Shown here piece by piece: positions 8,833-58,043 of a DNA stretch of 64,000 nt. The stretch lies in contig JADFYJ010000002.1 in assembly GCA_015233115.1 (NCBI GenBank), positions 38,016-102,015 on the forward strand. Direction: 5' to 3'. Numbering within the stretch: the stretch's first letter is position 1; each line of letters starts with the position of its first letter. Origin of the DNA: Candidatus Omnitrophota bacterium. Its GTDB lineage: Bacteria > Omnitrophota > Gorgyraeia > Zapsychrales > Zapsychraceae. Position numbers and translations under genes: made by a program. Below the pieces are notes generated by a model. That model was not told the origin of the DNA and did no database searches. It was given only the letters and a program-made list of their open reading frames with translations.

Positions 8833-8942
8833 ATTTTTGCCCCCTTCTATAATAATCGGCCTACACTGAAAATATATACTATATTTGGAGAAAAACAAGA
8901 GCTGTAGGAAGATTATAAGAAAGCGGTTACAATAAAAAGTTA

Positions 8943-8973
8943 TAAAGGTGGTAAAGGTATAAAGGTGATAAAG
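8943..8973. repeat. tandem nonamer repeat (taaaggtgR x3.5), family G
   Basis: ataaaggtggtaaaggtataaaggtgataaagg. The reverse complement recurs at ~61366-61395. Confidence 0.4.
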
Positions 8974-8983
8974 GAAAATAAAA

Positions 8984-9030
8984 CTAAAAATAAAAAAGCC
9001 GCAGGTTGTGAACAATTATCCAACCTGCGG
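8984..9030 (-). terminator. rho-independent terminator downstream of the SET/speH-like operon
   Basis: Perfect 10-bp stem ccgcaggttg/caacctgcgg, followed on the minus strand by cttttttatttttag. Confidence 0.5.
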
Positions 9031-29344: not shown

Positions 29345-31357
29345 TTAAGGGTGAATTTTTTTTATTTTGCTCAGCAAATCCAATAACTGAGGATTCTGCG
29401 GATTCAGGTTCAAACCAGCCTGCACAGCCGTAACGGCATCATCGTAACGGTTCATATGCTCCAAAAATTTAACGAGTTTTATATAGGCAGGCACATAAGA
29501 CTGATCGATCTTAAGTGCCTGGATATAAAAGTCAAATGCACAGACAGCCTTTTTTGCTGTTACACAAATATCTCCCGCATTTACTAAATTTTTTTTATCC
29601 TTCAATTCCCGCAATAGTTGTTGCGACCAATTTTGAAATTGCTCCTCATGCCCGGTAAGATAAAACATTCTTAATAAATTCAATTTGGTTAACTCATCAG
29701 CTGGCTCGATGTCCAAACTTTTTTCATACATTTGGGCCGCTTTTATAAAATTTTTTTCTTTTTCATAAATAGAGGCTAAATTATCAACGACTATCTTTTG
29801 ATCTGGGTCCAAAGCCATCGCTTTTTCAAATTCAATTTTTGCCATTTCATTGTTTTCCAAATCACGGTACGCGGCGCCCAAGTTGCTATAACTAATAGCT
29901 TGATGAGGTTCCACTGCTATGGCTTTTTTAAAATAAGTTACGGCTAAATCAATTTTTTTTTCGTTAGCCGCGATGACTCCCAAATTAACTAAATATTTCC
30001 ACTGATTAGGTAAATCGCCCAAAGATTTATTGAACAATTCATAAGATTCAGAATAATTTTTTTTATTAAAATAAGCGTTAGCCTGAAAACCATCAATCAA
30101 ATCAAATTTTTTAGTTAAAATATGTGACCGCCAAAAATTACAATAGTTAATTTCATCGCTCCAAATATTGTTCATAACCCACGACTGACTGATCAGAGCC
30201 ACCACCATGCTTGCGATCAAACCAGGCGTTAAAATTGTTGAAACTTTCTTCCCTAAATTATCCAATAACCATGCGGTTAATGCAAAAAAACCAATAGAAT
30301 TAAAAAATAACCAATGAGGCTCCAAAACGATTCCAACACGGCTAAACGACAAAGACGCCAAAAAAACCGGAATAATCCCTAGAATAAAAAATAAAAGCAA
30401 AAAACCATATACGTATATCTGCTGCTGCATCCATTTAATAATCATCCAACCCATTATGATAAAAAAGAACAACAACGCGGTAATCCACGCTGGCGCCCCT
30501 TGGACTACAACCGGCGTTCCCCAGATTAATACCACTCCCCTGGGATAAAATAATTGGCTCACATACCAAAACCAAGCTTTAGAAACCGTTGCTATAAACT
30601 GCCACGGAGAAATCCCCATAGTTTGATATATTTTCCAATACGAACCGCCCACGTCAGAAAATCTCATCCGGAATAATAAAATAAATCCTAAGATAATAAA
30701 AAATAAAGCACAATATTTAAATGTTTGGCGGATGGATAAGCGGTGAACCATCAAACACAACGCGGCCGCGTAAAATGGTAAAAAATACGCTGTTTCATGA
30801 CACAAGCAGGATAACAAATAAAAAATTCCCGCTAACCCCATCATGCCCCACTTAACCAGCCCTTTCCCCGAATATATGATACTTTTATGCATCAGCCACA
30901 AAGATGCCGCCATAAAAATCAACTGAACAATCAGCACGTTAGCCGTTATGTAATTCACTAACATCCCATTAATGGGGTGAACACAAAACAAAATTGCCGT
31001 GACCCCTGCCACCCAAAATTGGCGGGTCAAAGTCGACAAAAAAATGAAAATAAAAATACAAAGAATGGCAAAAAGGAAACAATTTAAAACATGATAACCA
31101 GTAGGATTATAGTGGAACAACGCAAAATATCCGACTTGCAGCACACTCCGTAAGGGACGAAAATGAGCAGAACCGCTGCTATCAGCTAATCCCTTGCCAG
31201 AAGCAAAAGCAAAAAATAAATTTTTGATATTATGCGTATGATAATTTGCTACAAAATGATTACCATCATCCATCATAAAGGCATTATGCAAACTATTGAA
31301 ATACGTCAAAAACGAAAGAAACAACAGCGTTACGATTATACCAATATTTTTTTTCAT
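29345..31357 (-). CDS. TMTC-like membrane protein: N-terminal GT-C (PMT/DUF1736-like) polytopic domain plus C-terminal TPR repeats, paralog 1
   Basis: LTYFNSLHNAFMMDDGNHFVANY..HFRPLRSV matches the YxNSLxNxFVWDD..HxRPL pattern of TMTC/PMT_2 family proteins. About 10 TM segments, then TPR motifs. Confidence 0.55.
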   Translation of the reverse strand: MKKNIGIIVTLLFLSFLTYFNSLHNAFMMDDGNHFVANYHTHNIKNLFFAFASGKGLADSSGSAHFRPLRSVLQVGYFALFHYNPTGYHVLNCFLFAILCIFIFIFLSTLTRQFWVAGVTAILFCVHPINGMLVNYITANVLIVQLIFMAASLWLMHKSIIYSGKGLVKWGMMGLAGIFYLLSCLCHETAYFLPFYAAALCLMVHRLSIRQTFKYCALFFIILGFILLFRMRFSDVGGSYWKIYQTMGISPWQFIATVSKAWFWYVSQLFYPRGVVLIWGTPVVVQGAPAWITALLFFFIIMGWMIIKWMQQQIYVYGFLLLFFILGIIPVFLASLSFSRVGIVLEPHWLFFNSIGFFALTAWLLDNLGKKVSTILTPGLIASMVVALISQSWVMNNIWSDEINYCNFWRSHILTKKFDLIDGFQANAYFNKKNYSESYELFNKSLGDLPNQWKYLVNLGVIAANEKKIDLAVTYFKKAIAVEPHQAISYSNLGAAYRDLENNEMAKIEFEKAMALDPDQKIVVDNLASIYEKEKNFIKAAQMYEKSLDIEPADELTKLNLLRMFYLTGHEEQFQNWSQQLLRELKDKKNLVNAGDICVTAKKAVCAFDFYIQALKIDQSYVPAYIKLVKFLEHMNRYDDAVTAVQAGLNLNPQNPQLLDLLSKIKKIHP

Positions 31358-33393
31358 TTATTATGTATTTTACTCTCGGCCTGCCATTGCCGTATTTCAC
31401 GCATCAATTGCAATAGCTGAGAATGGTTCGGATTCATTTTTAATCCCATTCGGACAGTCATTAAAGCGTCATCAAACCTCCCCATATTTCCCAATAACTT
31501 TCCAAACTCGACATATACCAAGGCATACGCCGGATCAACCTTCACGGCCTTTGTATAAAAATCCACGGCCAACATAACCTGGTTTGCCAATGCGCAAACA
31601 TCTCCAGCGGAAACGAGATTATTTTTATCATTCACTTCTTTTATCAGCTGTTCAGAATAACTTTTAAATTTTTCAATATTTTTTTCATTATAATACAATT
31701 TTAATAAATTTAATTTTAAGCCCTCTTCAGCCGGTTCAATCTCTAACGCTTTTTCATAAAGTTTTTCCGCCGCTTTAAAATTTTTCTCCTTCACATAACA
31801 AAGCGCCAAATCTTCAACTGTAGCCATTTCATTTGGATCCAAATCAAAAGCTCTTTCAAAGGCCAACCTGGCTTGATCATTCTTTCCTAACTCCCGATAG
31901 GCAACACCCAAATTCGTATAGATAGCAGCTTTATTAGGTTCCAAATCAATAGCTTTTTTAAAATAAGTTATGGCCACATCAAATTTTTTCTCATTAAGCT
32001 CAATTAAGCCTAAATTCACTAAACTTTTCCACTGATAAGGCAAATCAGCCAATGATTTTTCAAATAATGGCCGGGATTTGGAATAAAACTTTTTTTTAAA
32101 ATATGCCGTGGCTTGAAAAAAATCTATCAAATAAAAATTTCGGACTAAAATATTTGATCGCCAAAAATCACAATATTTTATTTCATCCCCCCATATACTG
32201 TTCATCACCCACGTCTGGCTTAACAGAGCAAAAACAATACTTGCGATTAACCCGAATGTTAATATTTTAGAAACTTTTTTCGTCAAACGAACCAACAACC
32301 ATGCCGCCACCACAAAAAAACCAATAGTATTAAAATAGACCCAATGCGGTTCCATAACAATACCTATGTCACGGAATAACATCGCAGCCAAAAACGTAGG
32401 AACAAAACCCAATGTCAATAACAGAACAAAAAAACCAAAAACATTTTTTTGATCACGAATTAATTTTAAAATCGCGAAAATAATCCCCCCCCAAAAAAGC
32501 ATTAACGCCGCGATCCAGACCCATACCATGCCAGAGACCACAGCAGGTGTGGCCCATATCAACACTACTCCTTGAGGATATAACAATTGGCCTAAATACC
32601 AAAACCAAACTTTTGAAACTGAAGCAAAATACTGCCCTGGATTTATTCCCATGCTTTGATATGTCTGCCATAACGAACCACCCACGTCAAAATACTTAAC
32701 CCGGAATAACAAAATTAAACCTAATACAAGAAAAAGAACAAAACAGTATTTTATAGTTTGACGAATAGATAATCGATGAACAACCAAACAAAGTGCTGCC
32801 GCATAAAAAGGAAGGAAATATGCCGTCTCATGACACAAACAAGACAATAAATATAAAAACCCAGCTAATCCAAGCAACCCACACTTAACAAATGTTACTG
32901 ACGAAGAAACAATACTCCGCTGGACTAAACCCAAAGATGCCATCATAAAAATCAACTGCACGATAAGTCCATTTGCCGTAATATAATTCACCAACATCCC
33001 ATTGATCGGATGAACACAAAATAATACCGCGGTTACTGCTGACACCCAGAAATCTTTGGTGAGATCCAGCGAAAAAAAGAAGATAAAAACACAAAAAATA
33101 AAGAAAAGAATGCAGTTTAAAACATGATAACCAAAAGAGTTATATTGGAATAAAACGAAGTTGATGACTATGATAATACTATGTAGGGGACGAAAATGCG
33201 TTGCCCCGGTTTCAATCACTGATCCCTTACTGGAGGTAAAAACTGAAAATAAATTTTTGATATTATGCGTATTATAATTTGACACAAAGTGACTAGCATC
33301 ATCCATCATAAACGCATTATGCAAACTGTTAAAATAAGTCAGAAAGGACACCAGCAGCAAAGCTAATATCAAAAAAATATTTTTTTTCGACAT
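31354..33393 (-). CDS. TMTC-like GT-C/TPR membrane protein, paralog 2 (tandem duplicate)
   Basis: Same architecture. By alignment with paralog 1 the likely start is MSKKNIFLIL (~33393); the track ORF begins at 33462. Stretches of >80% nucleotide identity to paralog 1 near the 5' ends. Confidence 0.55.
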   Translation of the reverse strand: MSKKNIFLILALLLVSFLTYFNSLHNAFMMDDASHFVSNYNTHNIKNLFSVFTSSKGSVIETGATHFRPLHSIIIVINFVLFQYNSFGYHVLNCILFFIFCVFIFFFSLDLTKDFWVSAVTAVLFCVHPINGMLVNYITANGLIVQLIFMMASLGLVQRSIVSSSVTFVKCGLLGLAGFLYLLSCLCHETAYFLPFYAAALCLVVHRLSIRQTIKYCFVLFLVLGLILLFRVKYFDVGGSLWQTYQSMGINPGQYFASVSKVWFWYLGQLLYPQGVVLIWATPAVVSGMVWVWIAALMLFWGGIIFAILKLIRDQKNVFGFFVLLLTLGFVPTFLAAMLFRDIGIVMEPHWVYFNTIGFFVVAAWLLVRLTKKVSKILTFGLIASIVFALLSQTWVMNSIWGDEIKYCDFWRSNILVRNFYLIDFFQATAYFKKKFYSKSRPLFEKSLADLPYQWKSLVNLGLIELNEKKFDVAITYFKKAIDLEPNKAAIYTNLGVAYRELGKNDQARLAFERAFDLDPNEMATVEDLALCYVKEKNFKAAEKLYEKALEIEPAEEGLKLNLLKLYYNEKNIEKFKSYSEQLIKEVNDKNNLVSAGDVCALANQVMLAVDFYTKAVKVDPAYALVYVEFGKLLGNMGRFDDALMTVRMGLKMNPNHSQLLQLMREIRQWQAESKIHNK

Positions 33394-33400
33394 AATATTA

Positions 33401-33757
33401 TCATTGGAGCGGTATGGTTCTATAAAAACACGATCTTTGATTAGTGTGACATGCGGCATCAACTTGTTCTACTTTAATTAAAAGGCAATCGCAGTCGCAG
33501 TCATAGCAGACTTCTTTGACAAATTGAAAATGCCCGGACGTCATGCCTTTAACCCAAAATTCCTGCCGAGAACGGGACCAATAGCACGCTTTTTTATCTG
33601 TTAACGTCCGACGAAGTGATTCATTATTCATCCAGGCCATCATCAAAACATCACCGTTCTTGACATCCTGAACGATAACCGGAATGAGCCCTTCTCGAGA
33701 ATATTTAAGCTGTTCAAGACTATCTATCGTAATTATTAATTCTTCAGGTTTGGTCAT
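33401..33757 (-). CDS. hisI: phosphoribosyl-AMP cyclohydrolase
   Basis: [30 protein letters not shown] and a Cys-rich metal site. Confidence 0.85.
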
Positions 33758-34509
33758 GATCTGATATTAATCCCTTCTTTATTTAAATACTGTTTAACCT
33801 GATTTATTGTCAATTCTCCATAATGAAAAACCGATGCCGCCAAAGCCGCATCAGCGGAGGTACGTTTAAAAATATCAGCAAAATCTTGCAATTTTCCTGC
33901 GCCGCCAGAGGCAATAACAGGAATGTTAACCGCCCGGCATACAGCGTCTGTCAACGCGACATCGAAACCATCTTTAGTGCCGTCCGCATCCATACTGGTC
34001 AAAAGTAGCTCACCTGCTCCCAATTCCTCAACCTGTCTAGCCCATTGCACAGCATCTTTTCCAGTTGGAATACGGCCTCCGTTTATGAACACTTCCCAAT
34101 GATCTCCCTGTTTCTTCGCGTCTATCGCGACCACGATGCACTGACTGCCAAATTTTTCTGCCGACTGACGAATCAAATCCGGATTTTTAATAGCCGCGGA
34201 ATTCATGGATACCTTATCCGTTCCGGCATTCAAAAGAACACGAATATCGTCAATAGAATTAATCCCGCCCCCCACGGTTAGAGGCATAAACACTTTCTCA
34301 GCCGTCCGCTTGACAACATCAATAATAATCGACCGTTTTTCGTGGCTCGCCGTGATATCCAAAAAAACAATTTCGTCGGCCCCAGCACGATCATACCCTT
34401 CCGCGATCTCAACCGGATCTCCGGCATCACGCAGATTAACAAAATTCACGCCTTTGACCACGCGGCCATCTTTGACATCTAAACAGGGGATAATACGTTT
34501 GGTTAACAT
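33754..34509 (-). CDS. hisF: imidazole glycerol phosphate synthase, cyclase subunit
   Basis: [20 protein letters not shown] and HisF TIM-barrel sequence. Confidence 0.9.
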
Positions 34510-34517
34510 AACAAACT

Positions 34518-35243
34518 CTACCTTATTTCCTGAGTCGCTTTCTTTAAATCAATCTTTCCTTCATAAATCGCCTTGCCTGTAATCGCACCAACCACACCCT
34601 TAAGCTCCAATGTTTTAATTTGTTTCAGGTCTTCGAGCGATGATACGCCGCCTGAAGCAATAATATTGACATGTTGAACACTTTCAGCTATAGCTTCCAA
34701 TGCGGCCATATTCGGGCCAGTCATCATTCCGTCGCGGGCGATATCTGTAAATATAATCCATTTAACACCGATTTGTTCTAATTCTTTGGCAAAAACAGTC
34801 GCTTTAACATCGGATGTGCTAACCCACCCATGCTGAGCCACCATTCCATTATGACAATCCAGGCTCACCGCGATTTTGTCTCCCCAGATGCCAACGATTT
34901 CTTTTAAAAAATTTAAGTCCTGAATAACCTTTGTTCCTAAAATCACCCGGCTCACTCCGCCGTCGATCAAACTTTTAATATCTTCTTTGGTGCGGATTCC
35001 TCCGCCCATCTCAATTGGTATTTTTACAGTCCGGGCGATTTGCAAAATAATATTTTTATTCCGGATCACTCCATCTTTAGCGCCATCTAAGTCCACAATA
35101 TGCAGCCACTCGGCGCCTTCAGTTTCCCAAAAACGCGCCATGACCACTGGGTCACGACCATATTCTGTTACCTGGTCAAACTTGCCTTGAACCAACCGAA
35201 CAACTTTGCCGTCTTTAATATCTATTGCGGGAAAAATGATCAT
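34518..35243 (-). CDS. hisA: ProFAR isomerase
   Basis: [20 protein letters not shown]. Confidence 0.9.
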
Positions 35244-35839
35244 ATTTTTATAAAATTTTCTAAAATTTTTATACCGATTGCCTGGCTTTTTTCCGGGTGA
35301 AATTGTACGCCAAACACATTGTGACTACACATTGATGAACAATAATCAATCCCGTAATTCGTTGTGGCCGCAACAATGGTTTCATCATTTGGTTTGACAT
35401 AATATGAGTGACACAAATATACGTTCGAACTGTTTGGCACATCCTTAAATAAAACACAATCTTTTTGCTGTATCTGAATTTGATTCCAGCCCATTTGCGG
35501 CACTTTTAACTGGGTGAATTTTTCAACTGTCCCTTTAAAAATGCCCAATCCTTTGACTTCTCCGCCTTCATAACTGGTTTCGAACAACAACTGAAAACCT
35601 AGACAGATACCTAAAAACGACTTACCACTTTTAATCGCATTCTTAATAACCGATATTAAACCAAGTTCAGTTAACTTGTCCATGGCTGGACGCATAGCCC
35701 CAACACCCGGAAGAACAATTTTCTTCGCGTTTTCAATATCTGAAATATTTTGGGTCACTATGGCAGCCGAACCGGCTTTTTCAAAAGCCTTCTGCACACT
35801 GCGCAAGTTCCCCATTCCATAATCGATAATGGCAATCAT
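35240..35839 (-). CDS. hisH: imidazole glycerol phosphate synthase, glutamine amidotransferase subunit
   Basis: MIAIIDYGMGNLRSVQKA and a GICLGFQ catalytic Cys. Confidence 0.9.
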   Translation of the reverse strand: MIAIIDYGMGNLRSVQKAFEKAGSAAIVTQNISDIENAKKIVLPGVGAMRPAMDKLTELGLISVIKNAIKSGKSFLGICLGFQLLFETSYEGGEVKGLGIFKGTVEKFTQLKVPQMGWNQIQIQQKDCVLFKDVPNSSNVYLCHSYYVKPNDETIVAATTNYGIDYCSSMCSHNVFGVQFHPEKSQAIGIKILENFIKI

Positions 35840-35866
35840 AATTTAATCCGAATTTTGATGGTTCAC

Positions 35867-36002
35867 GTATGTCGTACGTAGTATGTGGTATGTAGCGAAA
35901 AAAATCAAAATAATATTTTTAAAAAACTGGATTCCCACCTTCGCGGGAATGACAAGTCTAATCGTTTTTCGCTCTACATACGCATACCACATACTACATA
36001 CC
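35867..36002. repeat. IR-flanked element, family D, empty copy between hisH and hisB
   Basis: Left arm gtatgtcgtacgtagtatgtggtatgtagc. Right arm ctctacatacgcataccacatactacatacc. Internal attccc-acct-tcgc-gggaat hairpin. Confidence 0.6.
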
Positions 36003-36007
36003 ATTTT

Positions 36008-36619
36008 TTAATCAATTATTCCCTTCGTCGACGGGATCATATTGGGTCTGGAGGGATTGATACGGGTCGCTTCATGTAAAGCCAGACCCAAAGCCTTAAA
36101 AGCGGCTTCCATATTTGTATGCAGATCTTCGCTGGTTCCCTCGATCTTGACATTGATCGTCGCGCCAAGGTTATGCGCAAAAGATTCGAGGAAATGTTCC
36201 AGGTAAGCCATGGCGTAGCCATCTTCATTCTTAATATTAACTTTTTCCAAATTATCAATAACCAGGGTTAAATATCCCCGACCGCTGATATCCACAACTG
36301 CGCGGCCCAACGTCGATTCCATAGGCGCGAACGCGGAACCAAAACGTTTGATGCCTTGCATGTCGCCTAAAGCTTTTTTAAATAATTTACCCAGCACAAT
36401 TCCAATATCTTCATTGGTGTGATGAATATCAATTTCCAAATCAGCTTTTTTAACTGCCAAGTCTAAATCAAAACACGCGTGAAAAGCGAAAAGGTCCAAC
36501 ATATGATCTAACAAACCAATGTTAGTTTTAACTTGAGTCTTCCCTTGCCCGTCGATATTCAACGATGCAATAATCTCAGTTTCTTTGCTTTTTCTCTCAA
36601 TCTGTGCTGTTCGATTCAT
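36008..36619 (-). CDS. hisB: imidazoleglycerol-phosphate dehydratase
   Basis: RTAQIERKSKETEI...HH..ED IGPD motifs. 203 aa, monofunctional. Confidence 0.9.
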   Translation of the reverse strand: MNRTAQIERKSKETEIIASLNIDGQGKTQVKTNIGLLDHMLDLFAFHACFDLDLAVKKADLEIDIHHTNEDIGIVLGKLFKKALGDMQGIKRFGSAFAPMESTLGRAVVDISGRGYLTLVIDNLEKVNIKNEDGYAMAYLEHFLESFAHNLGATINVKIEGTSEDLHTNMEAAFKALGLALHEATRINPSRPNMIPSTKGIID

Positions 36620-36637
36620 ATGTTTTGTCCTATAAAA

Positions 36638-37073
36638 GTATGTGGTATGTAGTATGTCGTATGTAGTAAAAACTACAATTTTTTAATCAAAGCCTTTGTC
36701 ATTTTAGATACAGATTCGAGATCTTGCAATATCGGTTTCGATAATTCAGATTTTAAAAAACCTAATTCTACTGAAATTATAACCTGTGTTTCTAACTCAG
36801 CAACTGAACCCATAACAATATATAAAAACTGTCGATTTTTTTATTATGATATCTTCTAAAACCTTCTGCGATATTTGATGGTATCGAGATGGCTGCCCTT
36901 CGCATTTGAGATACTAATCCAAACTGTTCTTCTTGAGGATAATTTTTTGTGACTTTATAAATATTTTTTACTATTTCAACACCAAACTTCCAAATTCTTA
37001 AATCCTGATAAGTTGTTATCTTTTCGTCCATTGCTTTCCCACCACATACGACATACCACATACTACATACTAT
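36638..37073. mobile_element. IR-flanked element, family D, loaded copy carrying a four-helix-bundle protein gene
   Basis: Left arm gtatgtggtatgtagtatgtcgtatgtagta. Right arm accacatacgacataccacatactacatact. Same TIR family as the empty copies at ~24292 and ~35867. Confidence 0.6.
36680..37061 (-). pseudogene. four-helix-bundle protein (23S rRNA intervening-sequence protein family), frameshifted
   Basis: The track ORF 36792-37061 ends at ...AISIPSNIAEGFRRYHNKKIDSFYILLWVQLLS. The +2 frame continues QFLYIVMGSVAELETQVIISVELGFL...KMTKALIKKL, which is the conserved C-terminal half (GSxxELETQ). A single-nucleotide indel lies in the aaaaaaatcgacagttttt tract. Confidence 0.7.
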
Positions 37074-37075
37074 TT

Positions 37076-38299
37076 TTACTTAAATCTCACTTTAATCGAT
37101 TCTGAATGTTTATTTAAGCCTTCCAAAGTCGCAATTTGGATTATAGCATCTTTTACTTTGTCCAAAGCCTTTTTTGAATAAGAAATCACGTGGCTTTTTT
37201 TGACAAAATGATCTGTTCCTAAACCGGAAAAATATTTGGCTGAACCCATGGTAGGAAGAACATGACTGGGGCCTGCCGCGTAATCGCCCAAAGCTGTCGG
37301 GCTATAAGGCCCTAAAAATATTGCCCCAGCATTCACAATCTTCTTGGCAATCACATTCGGGTTGTTAGTCATAATTTCCAAATGTTCCGGCGCGATCTTG
37401 TTCGCGATTTCAATAGCTTCGTCCATATTTTTGGCATAAACCCCATATCCGGATGGAACACGGTTGCGTAATTGCTTTAATAATTGTTTTGACGTAGAAA
37501 TTAAAACTGCCAACCCTCCTAAATGTTCAATCTGCCCTTCCATATCTGCCGCGACAAAATCCGGATTAGAGCAGCGGTTAGCAATAATCGCTAATTCAGA
37601 CGGGCCGGCTAACATATCAATATCGACAAACCCAAAAACCTGTCGCTTGGCTTCAGTCACATAAATATTTCCCGGCCCAACCACTTTATGGACGCGGGGA
37701 ACAGTTTTTGTGCCAAGAGCCAACGCCGCAATCGCCTGAGCTCCGCCCACTTTGTATATCTCATTAACCTTCAACAAATTCGCGACCGCCAAAACGTATG
37801 GATTCACCTGACCATTTTTATTCGGCGGAGTCATGATGACAATCCGTTTAACGCCAGCTACCTTAGCCGGGATCACAGTCATGTATACGGTTGATACCAA
37901 GGGCGCGGTTCCTGCCGGAATATAAATGCCCACAGATTCCAGAGGCTGAATTGTTTCTTTTAAAATAACCCCTTCGTCAGCTTTCACAAAACACGGTCGT
38001 TGTCTTTGTGTTTTATAAAAAGTCGTCACATTTTTGATGATCATCTTCAAATTATCAACGAAATCATTGGTGATATTCTGAAACGCGGCGCTGATTTCAC
38101 CTTCAGGCACGCGCAGATCTTTGGCGGTTAATTTAACGCCGTCAAATTTCTTCGTGTATTTCAAAACCGCCTCGTCGCCATCTAACCTGACATCTTCAAT
38201 AATTTGGCGCACTTTATCGCTGACACTTTTTTTGTGCACCTGCGAATCACGATTATAAATATCCAGTAAACTTTTGCCGGTCTGTGTTAATATTTTCAT
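37076..38299 (-). CDS. hisD: histidinol dehydrogenase
   Basis: 407 aa, HisD family sequence throughout (VGPGNIYV, GPSHVLPT). Confidence 0.9.
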   Translation of the reverse strand: MKILTQTGKSLLDIYNRDSQVHKKSVSDKVRQIIEDVRLDGDEAVLKYTKKFDGVKLTAKDLRVPEGEISAAFQNITNDFVDNLKMIIKNVTTFYKTQRQRPCFVKADEGVILKETIQPLESVGIYIPAGTAPLVSTVYMTVIPAKVAGVKRIVIMTPPNKNGQVNPYVLAVANLLKVNEIYKVGGAQAIAALALGTKTVPRVHKVVGPGNIYVTEAKRQVFGFVDIDMLAGPSELAIIANRCSNPDFVAADMEGQIEHLGGLAVLISTSKQLLKQLRNRVPSGYGVYAKNMDEAIEIANKIAPEHLEIMTNNPNVIAKKIVNAGAIFLGPYSPTALGDYAAGPSHVLPTMGSAKYFSGLGTDHFVKKSHVISYSKKALDKVKDAIIQIATLEGLNKHSESIKVRFK

Positions 38300-42922: not shown

Positions 42923-44710
42923 ATGAATTTCGCTAAAAATAAAAAAATCCAGTCTGTTTTCGCCGCGGCCCTGCTAGCCATCCTATGTTTTGTTGCCTAT
43001 AGTCCGACTTTAACCCATCAATTTATGATTGATGACTATTTATATACCACAAAACAAGTCTCTCATACATTCAACCAAATGTCGGATTATTTCACTAAAA
43101 CCGCGTCACATCATTATGAACCATTGAATATTTTTATCAATGTCACGCTATTTAAATTTTTAAAAACGCCCCCCCTGCTTTACCTGACGAATATAGGATT
43201 ATTTAGTTTAAACTGTTTCCTGTTTTTCATCTTAATTTTGCGCTTATCAAAAAATTTTATGCTGGCCCTTATTTCTGCTTTACTTTTTTGCCTTCACCCA
43301 TATAACGCGGATATGATACAACATATTACGTTTAACATTATCTTTGTGACTTTTACTTTTATGAGCTTAAGCCTCATCACGCTTGATCTCTCCTTAAACG
43401 ATCGACTGCTCAAACGATATTATTTCATCAGTTTATTTTTTTGCGTCTTAGCCGCACTCTCCCAGGAAATTTCCATAATATTTCCTGCTTATGTCGCCAT
43501 CCTTTTATACTACAAAAAAACTCCTCTAAAAAAAATTTTTATTCTTGCTCTGCCTTATTTTTTGATGAGTCTGATCCAATTTTCACTATGGTTTTTTCTG
43601 GCCAAACCGAAATTAATGATCATGAACCATGCCCATCGCTTCCAGTTAACTTTTGAAGCAAATATCGCCAACTTTTGTCACACTATCCAATGGTATTTAA
43701 GCAATTTTATCTATCCTCAGTCCATTGTCTTTATGTATAGTTTTGATCCTATAAAAAGTCATATCGGTTTATATTGTCTATGGTTTTTTGTTATCGCTGT
43801 TATTGTTATCATAACCCTTTTTCTTTTTCGAAAACGTTTTTATTCCTTCGCCCTACTTTTTTTCCTGACTGGTTTTATAATTGTTTTTCCTGCCTCCCGT
43901 TCCCGCCCTATTTATGGAATCCTCATGGAACCTTACTGGCTCTATTTTTCTTCCATCGGAATTTTTACCCTTACCGCTTTATTGATCACGTCCGTTTATA
44001 AAAAAATTAACAAAACTTTATATTGGCTGTTTTTATTAACCCTATGCGCTTTTCTTTTTTATCACTCACAAAAACAACTTGCTGTCGGCCGCGATGAATT
44101 AACTTATACGGAATACTGGTTAAAAAAATCTCCGGATAACCTTTTAGCCAGAGGCATCCTGGGAGAACTTTATATTTACAATCCCATCCCCATTTCAAAT
44201 GATTTGATTCTCCCTATGATCAATAACACTAAAATTTATGTCAGAGATAACCATCAAGATCTGGCGTTAAAATTGGGAGAAAAAATTTTATTGAAAACTC
44301 TTCCCACTGAACAACGCATTGATATGCTTAGCCTAATGGCGGCCGCCCATGAAAAAAATGGCGACCCCATAAAATCCCGTAAAATAGTCAATCAACTCAT
44401 CACCACAAATTCTAACCCAAACATTTACATTCAAATCAGTTCAATCTTCGACCAAGTGGCCATGCCGGATGAAGCTATAAAAATACTCGATCAATGTTTG
44501 AATGTTTATCCCCAATTTAAAGAAGCATATTTGTTAAAAGGAATTATTCTAGGCAATCAGGACAAATATGAAGCAAGCATCAAAGTATGGGAAAAAGGAC
44601 TCGAGGTTGACTCCAAAGATACTCGATTTATGCGGCTTATCGAAGATGCCCAAAAACTCTATTCTTTAAGGGAAGGACAAAGTTCGTCTCCGAAGGCTAT
44701 GCGCCAGTAA
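42923..44710 (+). CDS. TMTC-like GT-C/TPR membrane protein, paralog 3
   Basis: YSPTLTHQFMIDDY..HHYEPLN is the same N-terminal signature as the 29345 and 31354 genes. Polytopic domain plus C-terminal TPRs. 52-nt convergent overlap with rsmE. Confidence 0.5.
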   Translation: MNFAKNKKIQSVFAAALLAILCFVAYSPTLTHQFMIDDYLYTTKQVSHTFNQMSDYFTKTASHHYEPLNIFINVTLFKFLKTPPLLYLTNIGLFSLNCFLFFILILRLSKNFMLALISALLFCLHPYNADMIQHITFNIIFVTFTFMSLSLITLDLSLNDRLLKRYYFISLFFCVLAALSQEISIIFPAYVAILLYYKKTPLKKIFILALPYFLMSLIQFSLWFFLAKPKLMIMNHAHRFQLTFEANIANFCHTIQWYLSNFIYPQSIVFMYSFDPIKSHIGLYCLWFFVIAVIVIITLFLFRKRFYSFALLFFLTGFIIVFPASRSRPIYGILMEPYWLYFSSIGIFTLTALLITSVYKKINKTLYWLFLLTLCAFLFYHSQKQLAVGRDELTYTEYWLKKSPDNLLARGILGELYIYNPIPISNDLILPMINNTKIYVRDNHQDLALKLGEKILLKTLPTEQRIDMLSLMAAAHEKNGDPIKSRKIVNQLITTNSNPNIYIQISSIFDQVAMPDEAIKILDQCLNVYPQFKEAYLLKGIILGNQDKYEASIKVWEKGLEVDSKDTRFMRLIEDAQKLYSLREGQSSSPKAMRQ

Positions 44711-45420
44711 GCCAAAACACTTAATGCTGCCGTTTCAACTCGTAAAATAGTTGATCCCAGCGTGACCGGAGTACAACCTTTCTGAAATGCAAAATCATAT
44801 TCACCCGGAGTAAAATCCCCTTCCGGTCCAATCAAAAAAGAAAAATTATTTTGTTTAGCGGGTAATGACAACGCCTCTTTTAAAAGTTTCCGGTTACCTC
44901 TCAAGCTGGGAATAATGACAGTCGAACGGCTGATCAAAAAATCAATGGCAGGTTCAAATTTCATGAAATTGTGAATAATCGGCACACGGGCTCTTTGACA
45001 TTGTTTGCAAGCATTAATCGCTACTGTTTGATAACGTTCTAACTTATGCTCTGCTCCATTTTTATAGGCTGAGAATTCGGTTCTTTGAGTCAATAAAGGC
45101 ACAATTTCCGCAACGCCTAACTCTGTTGCCTTTTCAATAATCAGTTCAAACTTACTCTTTTTAGGGATGGCACAGGCTAAAATAGTCCGCGGTTTCGTTT
45201 CCTCTTGAATAGCTGAAAATTCTTTGATTTGGAAAGCAATCGCCGCAGGTTTAATTTGAGTAATAATCCCAATAGCTTCAACACCCTGGCCATTAAAAAG
45301 ACGGATTTCTTCTCCAGCCTTAACCCGCAAAACATTTTTTAAATGGTGGATTTCCTCGGAATTAATAATCTGATAAGTATTTTGTTCTAAAACCAAATTG
45401 GGCGTGAAGCTACTTTTCAT
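44659..45420 (-). CDS. rsmE: 16S rRNA (uracil1498-N3)-methyltransferase
   Basis: PUA-like N-terminus and SPOUT C-terminus, LIGPEGDFTPGE. Confidence 0.8.
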   Translation of the reverse strand: MKSSFTPNLVLEQNTYQIINSEEIHHLKNVLRVKAGEEIRLFNGQGVEAIGIITQIKPAAIAFQIKEFSAIQEETKPRTILACAIPKKSKFELIIEKATELGVAEIVPLLTQRTEFSAYKNGAEHKLERYQTVAINACKQCQRARVPIIHNFMKFEPAIDFLISRSTVIIPSLRGNRKLLKEALSLPAKQNNFSFLIGPEGDFTPGEYDFAFQKGCTPVTLGSTILRVETAALSVLAYWRIAFGDELCPSLKE

Positions 45421-45432
45421 ATTTAACCGGGG

Positions 45433-46005
45433 TTAAGAACAACTCTGCGCCTCTGGATAAGAACTCATATTAATTGCTGCTCGCGGATTCTTAATCGGAT
45501 CCCATGGATGAGTAGCATCTATAACTTGTGTCGGGTCTGCCTGCAAAGTTAAATCAATGCGAATTTTGCAACCCGTCCATTGAAGAGAAGCCGTCACTAC
45601 TTTCTTGGAAAGTATTTCCGCTCCTGCTACCGCGCAATTAGCCGGATTCTGAGTAGCCGAATTATCAAATCTACAAATTGTATTCTTTGTACTTCCGCTG
45701 GCATCATAACGGTAAACGACCCACTTTGAAACAGAAGCATCTTTTTGAAACGATATTTGATTGGCAGAAGCAACAATTGTAGGTGATTCTCCAACATTCC
45801 CTTGGGTCTCTAAAGCATCCTTACTAATCCGCGCTGCTATAGTCATAGCTTCAATTTTCAATGTCGCAGAAGTTTGTGTGGTAACGCCGAAACGTCTCAT
45901 GGAGATATCAAACCCAATGATACCAAGCATAACCACGCCGATCAAAGTCGTTGCGATTAGAAGCTCCGCTAGTGTAATCCCTTGTTTATTAAATTTTTTT
46001 ACCAC
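45433..46005 (-). CDS. minor pseudopilin with prepilin-type N-terminal domain (PilW/GspJ-like), copy 2
   Basis: KQG|ITLAELLIATTLIGVV prepilin cleavage/methylation motif with E+5. 190 aa. Confidence 0.6.
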   Translation of the reverse strand: MVKKFNKQGITLAELLIATTLIGVVMLGIIGFDISMRRFGVTTQTSATLKIEAMTIAARISKDALETQGNVGESPTIVASANQISFQKDASVSKWVVYRYDASGSTKNTICRFDNSATQNPANCAVAGAEILSKKVVTASLQWTGCKIRIDLTLQADPTQVIDATHPWDPIKNPRAAINMSSYPEAQSCS

Positions 46006-46029
46006 CTTTACCTCCTCATCCTCATTTTA

Positions 46030-46389
46030 TCAATTCGGCCAGGACACATTCATGTAAATATTTCTGGCTTTAGACGAATCATCTACCACATAATAATTGA
46101 TGGTACAGCTGGTATTTGAATCAGCGTTATATACTATCGTATGCGTGCCACTAGGCTTGAGTGGATTGCTGTTGTCATTCCAAATAGTGGCATCAATCGA
46201 TGTCCGGAATGTCGCTAAAATATATTTTGCCGCGTATAAACATCGCGTCTCGCTCGATGATTGGGTGACTTTAGGACGAAGCATAGTCGTGGTCGCCATT
46301 ATCCCTGCCGCAGCGATCAAAAAAATAACCGCTGTTATAACCACTTCGACCATGGATGCTGCTCCGCGCCTTTTAACAGATTTTAACAT
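46030..46389 (-). CDS. small pseudopilin-like protein (PilV/GspI-like), copy 2
   Basis: RRGAASMVEVVITAVIFLIAAAGI hydrophobic N-terminal helix. Paralog of 47007-47351. Confidence 0.5.
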   Translation of the reverse strand: MLKSVKRRGAASMVEVVITAVIFLIAAAGIMATTTMLRPKVTQSSSETRCLYAAKYILATFRTSIDATIWNDNSNPLKPSGTHTIVYNADSNTSCTINYYVVDDSSKARNIYMNVSWPN

Positions 46390-46440
46390 TTTATTAACCT
46401 ATTTTTACTCAAATTTCTGTACTATCTATTCATTATCTCT

Positions 46441-47019
46441 TCAAAAAGAACTCAACACACAACTAAACCCTCCGCTTGAAGTATAACGCGGATTTTTCAT
46501 GATATCAACTACATATCCTGGACTCATATCATAGACCAGAGTAATGGTCACTGAGACAGCATTTTGTTGCTGGACAATATTATATGCTTCAACATTGTCG
46601 AGTAATACCTCTGCCGTAGCCAGATTACACACGCCAGTATTGTCCGATGGGATACATCTTAACAGCCGATGATCATTCGTAAACCAATAAGTGATCCAAG
46701 TATCATCAGCATAGGTCGGAGTTGGGGTTGGGTTGCGGTCTACCCTCACAGTTAATTTGGAGGGCGGAAATACTTGCAAACCTTTATCTAATTTGGAGCC
46801 TATAGCCCGATAAACATTTCGGGACATATCCGCAAAAACACTATCTGCTCTAATGCGAAGAATGGAACTTCTTTGTTGAGTGGATTGAAACCTTTGGAGG
46901 GTCAAACTAAAGCCCATAACGCCTAACAAGATCACGCTGACTAAAACCGTAGCTGTGAGAAGTTCAGAAAGAGTCAGGCCTTTTTTTTGAGGTGCAAAAT
47001 TCATAATTAATCCGGCCAA
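46441..47019 (-). CDS. minor pseudopilin with prepilin-type N-terminal domain (PilW/GspJ-like), copy 1
   Basis: KKG|LTLSELLTATVLVSVILLGVMGF. Paralog of 45433-46005. Confidence 0.6.
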   Translation of the reverse strand: MAGLIMNFAPQKKGLTLSELLTATVLVSVILLGVMGFSLTLQRFQSTQQRSSILRIRADSVFADMSRNVYRAIGSKLDKGLQVFPPSKLTVRVDRNPTPTPTYADDTWITYWFTNDHRLLRCIPSDNTGVCNLATAEVLLDNVEAYNIVQQQNAVSVTITLVYDMSPGYVVDIMKNPRYTSSGGFSCVLSSF

Positions 47020-47351
47020 GTAGCGTTCAGATAAACATTTCTAGCGCCCGTCGTAGCATCATTTATGATCAGATAACTAATCGTGCAGCCGTCTATTGTT
47101 TTACTATATTTTCCTGGATATAAAGGATTGGTAGAACTGTCCCATGTGCTGGCATCAACATTAAACCGTAAAGAAGACAATATATTTTTGGCCGCATACA
47201 TGCATTCTACCTCTTTTGACGATTGAACAGCTTTAGGCCGCAACATAGAGGTTGTCCCAATAATCGCTCCGGCCGCGACCAAAAAAATAACCGCGGTAAT
47301 GACTATCTCAACCATAGACACTGTGCCGCGATTTTTAAGAGATTTTAACAT
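47007..47351 (-). CDS. small pseudopilin-like protein (PilV/GspI-like), copy 1
   Basis: NRGTVSMVEIVITAVIFLVAAGAI. 114 aa. Confidence 0.5.
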   Translation of the reverse strand: MLKSLKNRGTVSMVEIVITAVIFLVAAGAIIGTTSMLRPKAVQSSKEVECMYAAKNILSSLRFNVDASTWDSSTNPLYPGKYSKTIDGCTISYLIINDATTGARNVYLNATWPD

Positions 47352-47420
47352 ATTGCTTTTCTATAAATTTGGGGCTCTTTTTTATAAGGGTACACCTTCC
47401 GGAACCACTCGTTTTCTTTA

Positions 47421-47858
47421 CTAATTCGTCGGGCAATTACCACCCGTGCTGACACAGCCCGGATTTGCGGCCGTTATATCCCCATCCGTTAAAGTAAAAT
47501 CACAAATGTTAGCTCCTGACCTATGACTTAATCTTGCAGTATATCCTGGGTTATTATAAATATAAAAGGTTCCCGCAGTCGGGACCATATTGTTTATATT
47601 CAAATTCAAAACCATGTTAGTGTTTATAGTGGCAATGTCTGCCGTCGTGGCTGGATAAAACGTTCCTGCTTCCGAATGATAAATGGTGTTCGCGCCGCTA
47701 AACGCGATTAACTGGGCTTTGGCATTTCGACAGTCATTATTCCGGGAAGTTTTTTGATATCCGGGAATAGCAATCGTGGCCAATATTCCGATTATCACCA
47801 CCACGATCATCATTTCCATGAGGGTAAAAGCTAATTTATTTTTCATATGCCCTGCCAT
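47421..47858 (-). CDS. type IV pilin-like protein (third pilin)
   Basis: LA|FTLMEMMIVVVIIGILATIAIPGY class III signal sequence. 145 aa. Confidence 0.65.
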   Translation of the reverse strand: MAGHMKNKLAFTLMEMMIVVVIIGILATIAIPGYQKTSRNNDCRNAKAQLIAFSGANTIYHSEAGTFYPATTADIATINTNMVLNLNINNMVPTAGTFYIYNNPGYTARLSHRSGANICDFTLTDGDITAANPGCVSTGGNCPTN

Positions 47859-47916
47859 ATTCGCGCAAATTACTTGCCATCATAAACGCCGTTCAAGTCA
47901 TGCGCTCCTTTAAAAA

Positions 47917-48351
47917 TTAATGAGTACCCGCAAAGAAACCAGTCCCTGAACGGGTGATTCCCGTAGCTGTGGCAGTTAAAACAACTGTCCCTGTTTGACC
48001 ATTTTCAACTGTCGTATCGCGAGTGGCCGTAATGGTTACATTTTGCGCTGTATCAAGATTAGCTACTGCATACGTCCAATGTCTCCCTGCCACCCCATTT
48101 ACATTACCAATATCTAAGTTGGTCCCCCAGCTGGTGCTGGTCATACAGACAGCGGCCGTATTCCCCGTTATCACACACCGATGAAGCGAATTGCGGAGAC
48201 CATCAAAAGTTGCAAAAGCCTCTGCTGTACGGGATCTTTCGACAGTATTAAATAAATTCGGTAAAGCTAAACTGGCCAAAACACCGATAATAATAACTAC
48301 AATAATCAATTCTAATAGTGTAAATCCATTAATTTTTTTCATAGTTGTCAT
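47917..48351 (-). CDS. pilA: type IVa major pilin, copy B
   Basis: NG|FTLLELIIVVIIIGVLASLALPNL. About 90% identical to the adjacent copy. Confidence 0.75.
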   Translation of the reverse strand: MTTMKKINGFTLLELIIVVIIIGVLASLALPNLFNTVERSRTAEAFATFDGLRNSLHRCVITGNTAAVCMTSTSWGTNLDIGNVNGVAGRHWTYAVANLDTAQNVTITATRDTTVENGQTGTVVLTATATGITRSGTGFFAGTH

Positions 48352-48355
48352 TTTT

Positions 48356-48392
48356 TAAAAAGGGGAGAGCATGACCCTCCCCTCATAATTAA
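48356..48392 (-). terminator. rho-independent terminator between the two pilA copies
   Basis: Minus strand reads ggggagggtcatgctctcccc followed by ttttttaaaa. Confidence 0.5.
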
Positions 48393-48402
48393 CAAAATAG
48401 TT

Positions 48403-48834
48403 TTAATGAGTACCAGAAAAGAAACCAGTCCCTGAACGGGTGATGCCCGTAGCTGTGGCAGTTAAAACAACTGTCCCTGCTTGACCATTTTCAACTGTGG
48501 TATCGCGAGTAGCTGTAATAGTTACATTCTGCGCTGTATCAAGATTAGCGGCTGCATACGTCCAATGTTTCCCAGCTACAGTATTAACGTCGCCAATATC
48601 TAAGTTGGTTGCCCAGCTAGTGCTGGTCATACAGAGAGCAGCCGTATTCCCCGTCGTCACACACCGATTAAGAGAACTACGGAGACCATCAAAAGTCGCA
48701 AAAGCCTCTGCTGTACGGGACCTTTCTACAGTATTAAACAAATTCGGCAAAGCTAAACTGGCCAAAACACCAATAATAATAACTACAATAATCAATTCCA
48801 ACAATGTAAACCCTTTTTTATTCCTCATTTTCAT
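48403..48834 (-). CDS. pilA: type IVa major pilin, copy A (promoter-proximal)
   Basis: KG|FTLLELIIVVIIIGVLASLALPNL. 143 aa. Confidence 0.75.
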   Translation of the reverse strand: MKMRNKKGFTLLELIIVVIIIGVLASLALPNLFNTVERSRTAEAFATFDGLRSSLNRCVTTGNTAALCMTSTSWATNLDIGDVNTVAGKHWTYAAANLDTAQNVTITATRDTTVENGQAGTVVLTATATGITRSGTGFFSGTH

Positions 48835-48930
48835 TTAAAACTCCTTTCTTCTGTTTGACAGCGTTCATTCCTATTAAAACTATAACATATTCCTTTTAGA
48901 CAGTCAAAATAGTATTCTTATTAAATATGT

Positions 48931-50163
48931 TTACCCTCCTGTTGACATTTTAAACAAAGGCAAAAACATTGCCACTACAATGGTCCCTATGACTGCACCC
49001 ATAAAAACAATCATTACGGGTTCTATCATCGTTGAAACCCTTTTAATATATACTTCAACCAATTCTTGATAATATTTAGAAACATGTTTCAACATCTTAC
49101 TTAACTCACCTGTCTCTTCCCCTACACTAATAAGCTGAACACACATGGCAGGAAAAAAACCACTTTTTTCCATCGGTGTCACTATGAGTTCGCCCTTTTT
49201 TACTCCTTCTTTTATGCTCCTCACAATTTTCGAACAGGTAATATTATCCACTAATTTTTCGGCAATATCCAATGCCGCTAAAATAGGCACCCCCGCTTCG
49301 ATTAAAATAGCCATTTGCCCAGAAAATCGTTCCACGACTATGAGCCGAAATACTTGACCCACACTAGGAACTTTAAATAAAAAATGTTCAAACCCTTCTT
49401 TCCCATGCGGAGTTTTAATAAATTGAAGAAATAAATATCCTGCCACCCCGATACCCGCGACAATAAACATAAAATAATTCCTGACAAAAGCGAATATGGA
49501 TAACAAAATGATCGTAATCATGGGCAGTTTTATATTCATAGATTTAAATATAGACTCAAAACGTGGTCCAACAAACAAAGCGAAAAAGGCAATTGCTCCG
49601 CACGCGACACAAAATAATAAAATGGGATATATGAGACTGGATACAATGGTCGTCCTAAACCCATTTTGCTGATCCATGTAGAAAGTCAATTTATTCAAAA
49701 CAGTCGGCAAAGAGCCTGAAGCTTCTCCAACCTCAACCAAACTCACCCAAAATTGATTAAACGCCTTAGGATGCTTGGCCAAGGCTTGGCTTAAAGAAAG
49801 ACCTTTTTCCACATCTTCTTTAATCTTAGCGACAATCTTGCTCAAACGTTCACTTTCCACTTGGCCACTGATGACTTCCAAACTGCGCATGAGCGATACC
49901 CCAGCCTCGAGCATGGTGGCTAACTGACGGGCAAAAACAATAAGATCCTGAAGTTTAATGACTTTATGTTTGTGTTTGACTGTAACCCGATGAAGCGGCG
50001 CGCCTCTTTTCTGGCCTGCTTGCAAAGAGAATTCCGTAATACTAATAACAAAATATCCCTGCCGCTGTAACAAATCAGACGCAGTAATACGATCTGAAGC
50101 ATCAACAAAGTTCTCCACAGATCTACCATTTTTATCTTTAGCAATAAAACTAAAACGAGGCAA
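48931..50163 (-). CDS. pilC: type IV pilus assembly platform protein PilC (GspF family)
   Basis: MPRFSFIAKDKNGRSVE start. Two GspF repeats, 3 TM. Confidence 0.9.
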   Translation of the reverse strand: MPRFSFIAKDKNGRSVENFVDASDRITASDLLQRQGYFVISITEFSLQAGQKRGAPLHRVTVKHKHKVIKLQDLIVFARQLATMLEAGVSLMRSLEVISGQVESERLSKIVAKIKEDVEKGLSLSQALAKHPKAFNQFWVSLVEVGEASGSLPTVLNKLTFYMDQQNGFRTTIVSSLIYPILLFCVACGAIAFFALFVGPRFESIFKSMNIKLPMITIILLSIFAFVRNYFMFIVAGIGVAGYLFLQFIKTPHGKEGFEHFLFKVPSVGQVFRLIVVERFSGQMAILIEAGVPILAALDIAEKLVDNITCSKIVRSIKEGVKKGELIVTPMEKSGFFPAMCVQLISVGEETGELSKMLKHVSKYYQELVEVYIKRVSTMIEPVMIVFMGAVIGTIVVAMFLPLFKMSTGG

Positions 50164-50215
50164 TTTTAACTCCTGCTTAATGATTAAATTTTTCTTTGTG
50201 ACCCTGTGACTTTGC

Positions 50216-53523: not shown

Positions 53524-53535
53524 AAAACACTCCTT

Positions 53536-54030
53536 TTATGGTTTAAGTGTGTAAGTCTCGCCTTGAAAAGAAACAGCCACGCCTTCTTTTGTTATCGATA
53601 GAATCTTAATAATTAAATCTTCCGAAGTCGATTGTTCAGAACCTTCTGGTATTCCCACATTATTTTTTGGGGCAGACGTCGATATCGTTGACGTATAGGG
53701 TAACACATCGCCCACATTATATACTTTATTGTCAATAATAGCTTGAGGCCGATCTGAATTCCAAACTAAACCTTTCACCACAAAAGGTGGCAAAGAAAGC
53801 TTCACCGGAGGAGGTGGAGGCGGAGTCGGTTCCGGAGCAGGTGTTGGCTCCGGATTCAGGTTCGGGTTCGGCGTTGGAGCCAGATTCGGTTCAGGCGCGA
53901 GAATTGGTTTCTCTGCTATAGGCATTTGAACCTCAAAAGGATCTTTTTCAAATTCAATTTCTTCAGCCCAAGAAATAACCGGCCAAATTAAAATCATTAC
54001 TGAAATTATAAAAATAATTTTCTTATTCAT
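53536..54030 (-). CDS. PilP-like pilus assembly lipoprotein (putative)
   Basis: Signal peptide, Pro-rich linker, C-terminal beta domain. Assignment by position between the PilO-like gene and pilQ. Confidence 0.4.
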   Translation of the reverse strand: MNKKIIFIISVMILIWPVISWAEEIEFEKDPFEVQMPIAEKPILAPEPNLAPTPNPNLNPEPTPAPEPTPPPPPPVKLSLPPFVVKGLVWNSDRPQAIIDNKVYNVGDVLPYTSTISTSAPKNNVGIPEGSEQSTSEDLIIKILSITKEGVAVSFQGETYTLKP

Positions 54031-54622: not shown

Positions 54623-54626
54623 AAAA

Positions 54627-56180: not shown

Positions 56181-56422
56181 ACTCTCCCCGAATCTTTTAT
56201 ACACGGAACACAACACAAATTTCAGTGGCTGATTTTTAGTTTTTGGTTTTTAGAAAAAAATATATTTGATTAGCAACAACAACCAACCAACGACCAACAA
56301 CCAGTATTACTGTATTGTGCCCCAAGTTTTAAGATTGCATATGTATCTTATGTAAAAAAAAACAATAAGTCTATAATATTCTAAAAAATTTTTTGCTTTG
56401 TGCAAATGAATCCTCCTACTCA

Positions 56423-57994: not shown

Positions 57995-58043
57995 AGTATA
58001 AAAATAAACTTAATAGCTTTTGACTTTTAGTTTTTGGTTTTCT

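Follow-up and report, generated by a model that had tools for sequence, protein, structure and literature searches.

Three paralogous GT-C/TPR genes for putative inner-membrane glycosyltransferases in an Omnitrophota genome

Genes A, B and C and their membrane domain

The window analysed here, a 64,000-nucleotide stretch of contig JADFYJ010000002.1 from a Candidatus Omnitrophica/Omnitrophota metagenome-assembled genome (MAG), is gene-dense, with genes almost all on the minus strand, and holds three paralogous genes whose products join an N-terminal membrane domain to a C-terminal tail of tetratricopeptide repeats (TPRs). Open reading frame (ORF) calls and translations bear out all three where an initial annotation of this DNA had placed them. 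These are A (29345-31357, minus strand, 670 amino acids), its tandem paralog B (31354-33393, minus strand, 679 amino acids) and C (42923-44710, plus strand, 595 amino acids), a divergent paralog for which we use the term C-type. A matches P0001, a "tetratricopeptide repeat protein" from a Candidatus Omnitrophica MAG, at 100%, and B is P0002, a public record to which NCBI gives the same name. The start of B was set at the ATG at 33393, which yields 679 amino acids and agrees with P0002 and with the N-terminus of A; the mechanical ORF reaches further, to a TTG at 33462. The pair sits in the order hisD-IVP-hisB-hisH-hisA-hisF-hisI-B-A-rpsP-yajC-secDF, where IVP stands for an intervening sequence protein. 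The histidine operon (33401-38299, minus strand, assigned by Pfam) lies directly upstream of B, with 7 nucleotides between the hisI stop and the B start, the ATG of A overlaps the stop codon of B (ATGA), and 104 nucleotides separate A from rpsP.

Gene C is transcribed away from recA-recX-alaS and towards both rsmE, a 16S rRNA methyltransferase gene (44659-45420, minus strand; Pfam Methyltrans_RNA and PUA_4), and an operon resembling those of type IV pili and type II secretion systems (45433-56216, minus strand; Pfam and NCBIfam matches, pilin sequences). The 3′ ends of C and rsmE overlap by 52 nucleotides, rsmE separates C from the last pilin gene, and 722 bp lie between C and the 3′ end of the pilin operon, which is on the other strand; the earlier placement of C about 750 bp upstream of the minor-pilin genes was therefore wrong. 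A collection of 5.8 billion proteins holds A and B at 100% identity and no identical or near-identical entry for C, the best match being 39% identical; C may have gone uncalled in public annotation, perhaps owing to its overlap with rsmE.

Both A and B carry the exact signature Y-x-N-S-L-x-N-x-F-x-x-D-D ... H-F-R-P-L that the initial annotation had read as YxNSLxNxFxxDD...HxxPL in all three proteins, while C has a degenerate form only (AYSPTLTHQFMIDD ... HYEPL). Over about 400 amino acids of the membrane domain, A and B are 27-28% identical to C (E 2e-37 and 3e-34). Pfam TPR matches fill the C-terminal third of each protein, from about residue 425 on, as had been claimed; those in C are weak, and in A the region of residues 419-668 (29354-30103, minus strand) matches TPR_1/2/8 and has 14 helices in the structural model, corresponding to about seven TPR hairpins that are predicted to be periplasmic. 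The membrane domain had been credited with about ten transmembrane (TM) helices, and the count is 11, given by the model of A together with hydropathy; B likewise has 11 hydropathy peaks.

A search with hidden Markov models (HMMs) returned no match of PF08409 (DUF1736) and PF13231 (PMT_2), the two proposed, or of PMT to A, B or C at E ≤ 1, which is formally the outcome that the initial annotation had itself named as its refutation. The assignment to the GT-C (glycosyltransferase C) fold nevertheless holds by a different route, that of structure and transitive homology. An AlphaFold2 (AF2) model of A residues 1-415 (30113-31357, minus strand), the 11-helix membrane domain, was built with 25 homologs and reached a predicted local distance difference test score (pLDDT) of 89.2 and a predicted template modelling score (pTM) of 0.91; the model of full-length A had a pLDDT of 90.8. 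Foldseek with the full-length model returned TPR proteins only, and the model of the membrane domain alone was made because the TPR matches had swamped that search, as they also swamped a comparison of the full-length family profile with PDB sequences. With the domain model the top 24 matches were all GT-C proteins, at probabilities of 0.90-1.00, ArnT, AftA and EmbB among the fold matches, and the probabilities that followed were mostly about 0.1. The predicted structure settles the matter: as modelled, the membrane domain of A is a GT-C fold.

In homolog alignments of 33 and 25 sequences, D30, D31, P68, P128 and E188 are invariant, and R67, H127, N130, Y136, H187, P194, R230, Y265, G327, P347, H348 and W349 are near-invariant. 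In an 11-helix topology with the N-terminus inside, the conserved residues all fall in predicted outside loops. Loop 1 carries D30-D31 and R67-P68, loop 2 H127-P128-x-N130, loop 3 H187-E188, loop 4 Y265-x6-P272 and loop 5 E346-P347-H348-W349. The predicted topology would place the TPR domain in the periplasm. D30-D31 (codons 31265-31270 of the window, minus strand) is the presumed catalytic acidic pair of the first periplasmic loop; its positions are D in 95-96 of 105 locus copies, the pair is present in A, B and C, and in position and motif type it corresponds, by description, to the DD/DE of TMTC, PMT and ArnT (PMC7801869). The loop-4 motif takes the form Y-x6-P in 75 of the 105 copies and Y-x6-P-x9-P in 31, A and B included; C reads Y-x6-P-x10-P.

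Family relationships and age of the tandem pair

The three proteins belong to a very large bacterial GT-C-TPR family, of a kind known before, as full-length TMTC homologues with GT-C and TPR parts have been noted in many uncharacterised prokaryotes (PMC7801869) and bacterial relatives of TMEM260 have been noted too (PMC10214176). A word-indexed protein search turned up no more than 35 relatives for A and 6 for C, whereas an exhaustive profile search with an E-value limit of 1e-3 reached 113,123 cluster representatives, of which 83,236 remained with a limit of 1e-10 and 20,626 with 1e-30, and the best 150 representatives are mostly 500-700 amino acids long. Sequence bridges to named families pass through the homologs: of the 25 aligned, three match PMT_2, one matches PMT (E 7.5e-4) and none matches DUF1736. 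P0022, P0026 and P0029 score above the gathering threshold of PMT_2, and for DUF1736 the distant homolog P0034 gives a faint match of 18.8 bits against a cutoff of 27. In Omnitrophota the family is often multi-copy at a locus and frequently forms tandem arrays. At locus L069 (1283-14943), from a Latescibacterota MAG, seven GT-C/TPR genes stand head to tail in a single array, and tandem amplification thus extends beyond Omnitrophota.

Among the closest described systems is TfpW of P. aeruginosa group IV, the pilin D-arabinofuranosyltransferase of strains Pa5196 and PA7, a protein of 646 amino acids with an internal N-terminus, 11 TM helices, a periplasmic TPR domain, a DDx motif in loop 1 and an ArnT-like model, whose gene directly follows that of the major pilin, pilA (bioRxiv 10.1101/2020.04.19.049825). 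By that published description the window proteins resemble TfpW in length (about 650 amino acids), in the predicted internal N-terminus, the 11 TM helices and the TPR tail, in an ArnT-like fold, in the loop-1 DDx and in a Tyr/Pro-rich loop-4 motif, and the pilA-tfpW gene order is found among their homologs at loci L056, L063 and L020 and nearly so at L029. The differences are that no GT-C/TPR gene of the window follows a pilin gene on the same strand, A and B following hisI and C lying beyond rsmE, that the exact loop-4 motif Y-x6-P-F-x7-P occurs in none of the 105 copies, and that no genes of a D-arabinofuranose pathway were seen in the window. With TMTC1-4, the metazoan protein O-mannosyltransferases of the endoplasmic reticulum (CAZy GT105), the window proteins share 11 TM helices followed by C-terminal TPRs on what would be the non-cytoplasmic side, the loop-1 DD pair, an HP motif that opens loop 2 and a loop-1 H-x-(Y/F)-R-P (HFRP in the window, SHKSYRP in TMTC). 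They differ in that the DUF1736 (PF08409) loop between TM7 and TM8 is unmatched in A, B and C, and a bacterial polyprenyl-phosphate donor would replace dolichyl-phosphate mannose. Likeness to the ArnT-like PMT_2 family and to the PMTs (GT39) comes from the three homologs above the PMT_2 threshold; the window proteins themselves have no such HMM match and no MIR domain, and neither ArnT nor the PMTs have a TPR tail. PglL/TfpO enzymes of the Wzy_C family likewise sit in the membrane and use lipid-linked donors to glycosylate pilins, but they form a separate family, with no Wzy_C match in A, B or C and a chance-level Wzy_C_2 match (E 0.095) inside the TPR region of B. The suggestion that the genes encode a class of enzyme other than PglL/TfpO therefore stands, whereas pilin glycosylation by such a GT-C enzyme is not new, TfpW being the precedent.

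The tandem pair had been called recent on the strength of more than 80% nucleotide identity over the 5′ 130 bp or so. That identity is real, amounting to 80% over the first 130 nucleotides and 87% over nucleotides 46-135, but the age drawn from it is refuted by the genes as a whole. The A and B proteins have 59.7% identity over 667 amino acids and their DNA has 68%, with a third-codon-position identity of 0.52 and Nei-Gojobori estimates of 0.27 nonsynonymous (dN) and 1.55 synonymous (dS) substitutions per site; codons 1-420, the membrane-domain half, give a dN of 0.24 and a dS of 1.49. A dS of 1.55 puts synonymous sites near saturation, so the duplication is not recent, and a dN/dS of about 0.18 indicates that both copies are under purifying selection. 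The nearest genome, that of L001, has the same his-GTC-GTC-rpsP-yajC-secDF order, in which GTC denotes a GT-C/TPR gene. There, the downstream copy is the nearest to both A (54% identity) and B (53%), the upstream copy reaching only 32-34%, so that the A/B pair arose after the two lineages split, whether by duplication or by replacement; that split was itself long ago, given flanking housekeeping proteins only 72-89% identical between the window and L001. A check for gene conversion, as the initial annotation had proposed, found third positions to agree more often in the first 60 codons (identity 0.70) than in the remainder (0.50; binomial p of about 0.001 before correction for windows, with two other 30-codon windows as high), yet dS is still 0.98 over those 60 codons, and the excess is a weak hint of conversion only.

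Pilus linkage and proposed function

The pilus operon of the window encodes PilM, PilO, a secretin, a PilB/GspE-type ATPase and PilC/GspF, followed by seven small ORFs, five of which carry prepilin motifs. How far such genes accompany the family was examined at 77 homolog loci from species-representative genomes, mostly Omnitrophota, which were retrieved with a 14-sequence alignment and annotated by tblastn, a membrane-domain HMM and a prepilin pattern. In its strict form this pattern found two of the at least five pilins of the window; it under-calls, and counts of pilus linkage are therefore lower bounds. Pilus genes lie within 10 kb at 13 or more of the 77 loci. At L063 and L056 a GT-C/TPR gene comes 15 and 61 nucleotides, respectively, after a pilin-like gene, and downstream of it lie further pilin genes, small genes that include pilM-like ones, and a secretin gene. 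L020 has pilC, a pilin gene and, after 42 nucleotides, a GT-C/TPR gene, and at L029 pilC and a GT-C/TPR gene overlap by 23 nucleotides at the pilC stop codon, and a pilin gene comes next. L024 has a pilus operon, a papain-like protease gene and, at the end, four tandem GT-C/TPR genes, the third of them C-type. In a neighbour-joining tree, one clade is largely pilus-linked, and pilus-adjacent members also occur in two other subfamilies. Those subfamilies that lie within type IV pilus operons probably modify pilins as TfpW does. A Peptidase_C1 papain-family protease (E 5.6e-15) is encoded at the tail of the pilin operon at L017, L024 (7282-8025), L032, L033, L036, L038 and L050 (3925-4689); where the order is resolved (L024 and L036) it comes just before the GT-C/TPR genes, and the window has no copy.

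Gene C groups with L024_11854 and L036_2941, to which it is 36% identical and with which it has in common R67E/V/I, Y136H, H187Q, R230W and H348Y/N. Both relatives stand in arrays at the tails of pilus operons, and locus L017 has a block like that of the window, with pilins, GT-C/TPR, a methyltransferase, rsmE, recA, recX, alaS and hisD. From these relatives and this block, C is best read as a rearranged member of the pilus-tail subtype. A and B, placed between the his operon and rpsP, have no pilus linkage. The proposal that proximity points to glycosylation of pilins thus gains from homologs inside Omnitrophota pilus operons and loses from the unlinked pair and from the status of C as a rearranged neighbour.

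Glycan-related genes recur near the homologs. Eleven loci of diverse taxonomy have a GT2 gene (PF00535) within 1-5 kb of the homolog, and 6 loci have an NAD-dependent epimerase gene; the order hemN-GTC (1-3 copies)-polyprenyl synthetase recurs with YfhO nearby, YfhO is found near P0004 and P0020, and P0019 adjoins a DegT / PIG-L / epimerase / GT4 cluster. These neighbours fit a glycosyltransferase that uses lipid-linked sugars, without pointing to its acceptor. The window has none of them.

We propose that A, B and C are inner-membrane GT-C glycosyltransferases with a periplasmic TPR domain that act in the manner of TMTC and TfpW, and we put the probability of this full reading at roughly 0.6. 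That they are GT-C glycosyltransferases with a periplasmic TPR domain can be said with considerable confidence; that the acceptor is a protein is favoured by a narrow margin. If TMTC1-4, TMEM260 and TfpW are a guide, the membrane domain would most likely take a sugar from a polyprenyl-phosphate carrier and pass it to a periplasmic acceptor selected by the TPR domain, most plausibly Ser/Thr of exported proteins. In the pilus-operon subfamilies that acceptor would be the pilins. C, as a relocated enzyme of the pilus-tail subtype, could act on pilins too, although we regard this as doubtful, and for A and B, between his and rpsP, pilins are a very unlikely target. More speculative, and unlikely as it stands, is a lineage-specific expansion of TfpW/TMTC-like GT-C-TPR protein O-glycosyltransferases in Omnitrophota, with at least three subfamilies in pilus operons, at times in arrays of up to four. 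Several enzymes that differ in TPR specificity would decorate pilins and further envelope proteins combinatorially, with C dedicated to the pilus and A and B serving other exported clients.

Several observations weigh against the proposed function. With Pfam and NCBIfam, A, B and C return TPR matches only, with no N-terminal match at E ≤ 1, and the membrane-domain family profile finds nothing among PDB sequences even at E ≤ 10. In A and B, as judged by way of TMTC-like homologs and, for loop 2, by eye, several residues of the TMTC ligand-binding loop motifs appear to be replaced: the Asp of the loop-2 "GRAD" is Leu or Asn, the Lys of loop EL3 is His (HE against KE), and the Arg of the EL5 "AER" is His (EPHW against AEH/AER); the motifs compared are those of PMC7801869. 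C departs further still, with R67E, H187Q and H348Y. Within the 64 kb window there is no GT2 donor synthase, GtrA-like flippase or sugar-nucleotide gene, and TfpW is the only experimentally characterised bacterial GT-C-TPR protein found in the literature. As for the pilus, 64 of the 77 loci (83%) have no pilus genes within 10 kb, the C-type homolog P0171, of which the neighbourhood is known without the DNA, has no pilus neighbours, and the pilus-recA-alaS-his block is syntenic across these genomes, with recA and alaS tied to the pilus operon just as C is, so that the proximity of C to pilins could be inherited gene order instead of function. The departures from TMTC and TfpW motifs are at the level of subfamilies, and the acidic pair is intact.

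The same evidence bears on what else the genes might do. If all three, or at least C, were dedicated pilin O-glycosyltransferases of the adjacent pilus, equivalents of TfpW, one could point to the matching TfpW architecture (bioRxiv 10.1101/2020.04.19.049825), to the three different subfamilies that abut a pilin gene or pilC elsewhere, to the C-type copies at the operon tails of L024 and L036 and to the Ser+Thr content of 22-23% in the candidate major pilins pil6 and pil7. Such dedication is unlikely, however, as 14-16 kb separate A and B from the pilus genes and their his-rpsP setting is kept in L001 without pili, C is on the opposite strand with rsmE between it and the pilins, the loci without pilus genes on either side are in the great majority, and the exact TfpW loop-4 motif is absent throughout. 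Transfer to a non-protein acceptor, such as lipid A or the core of lipopolysaccharide (LPS), exopolysaccharide, peptidoglycan or a teichoic-like polymer, as with ArnT, YfhO and Emb/Aft, would make the TPR tail a docking or chain-length module. This would suit the presence of ArnT, AftA and EmbB among the fold matches, a sequence bridge that passes through PMT_2, a Pfam family that takes in ArnT-like lipid glycosyltransferases, and the homologs found near polysaccharide clusters, polyprenyl synthetase and YfhO. We consider it improbable, both for the acceptor and for the TPR role that goes with it, since the known TPR-tailed GT-C enzymes, TMTC, TMEM260 and TfpW, act on proteins (PMC7801869, PMC10214176, bioRxiv 10.1101/2020.04.19.049825) and many paralogs with divergent TPR tails better fit different protein clients.

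A non-catalytic scaffold, in which a GT-C-like anchor (compare PIG-U) carries TPRs that aid envelope or secretin assembly in the manner of PilF/PilW/Tgl, would accommodate the best NCBIfam match of the A TPR region, type_IV_pilW (E 6.9e-21, far below the cutoff), and the apparent replacement of some TMTC ligand-binding residues. It is hard to credit given a DD pair, P68, P128 and E188 that are invariant in homolog alignments, TPR matches that are generic, GT2 donor-synthase genes that co-localise with homologs, and purifying selection on the membrane-domain half of A and B.

The window itself is ordinary, with three paralogs of a common family, and its interest lies in the family. Bacterial GT-C-TPR proteins are very numerous, at some 10^5 cluster representatives, and TMTC and TMEM260 are disease-relevant eukaryotic protein O-mannosyltransferases. 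Pfam and NCBIfam models miss the whole Omnitrophota branch, and for this reason the public records examined say only "tetratricopeptide repeat protein", a label that masks a probable capacity for protein glycosylation. The recurrent order of a pilin gene and then a GT-C/TPR gene offers a testable substrate hypothesis for an uncultured phylum.

Other features of the window

The pilus operon has features of its own. Its ATPase gene (50216-51958, minus strand) encodes an N-terminal MshEN domain (Pfam E 5e-17; NCBIfam cyclic di-GMP motif E 7.6e-17), which suggests that this pilus is under cyclic di-GMP control through an MshEN-type ATPase domain. The candidate major pilin genes pil6 and pil7 (47917-48834, minus strand) are in tandem, Thr-rich and 89% identical in protein and in DNA, the product of a duplication far younger than that of A and B. 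The putative minor pilins (45433-47351, minus strand) resemble a duplicated two-gene module, with pil2 and pil4 55% identical and pil1 and pil3 28% identical. Directly upstream of the operon lie genes for ExbB, ExbD and an 828-amino-acid TPR protein with YfiO/BamD-like matches (57587-61275, minus strand), and then uvrA; parts of this block recur beside GT-C/TPR or pilus genes at L029, L058 and L071.

Elsewhere, the IVP gene between hisD and hisB is an 89-amino-acid ORF (36792-37061, minus strand) of the "23S rRNA intervening sequence protein" family (PF05635), of which tblastn finds no copy in L001. An ORF of 1205 amino acids (5398-9015, minus strand) has a response-regulator receiver domain at residues 999-1113, and its first 1000 or so residues are without a Pfam match. 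GC skew is below zero in all 2-kb windows of positions 1-64000 and goes with the excess of minus-strand genes, as would be expected if all of the window belonged to a single replichore with a strong gene-strand bias.

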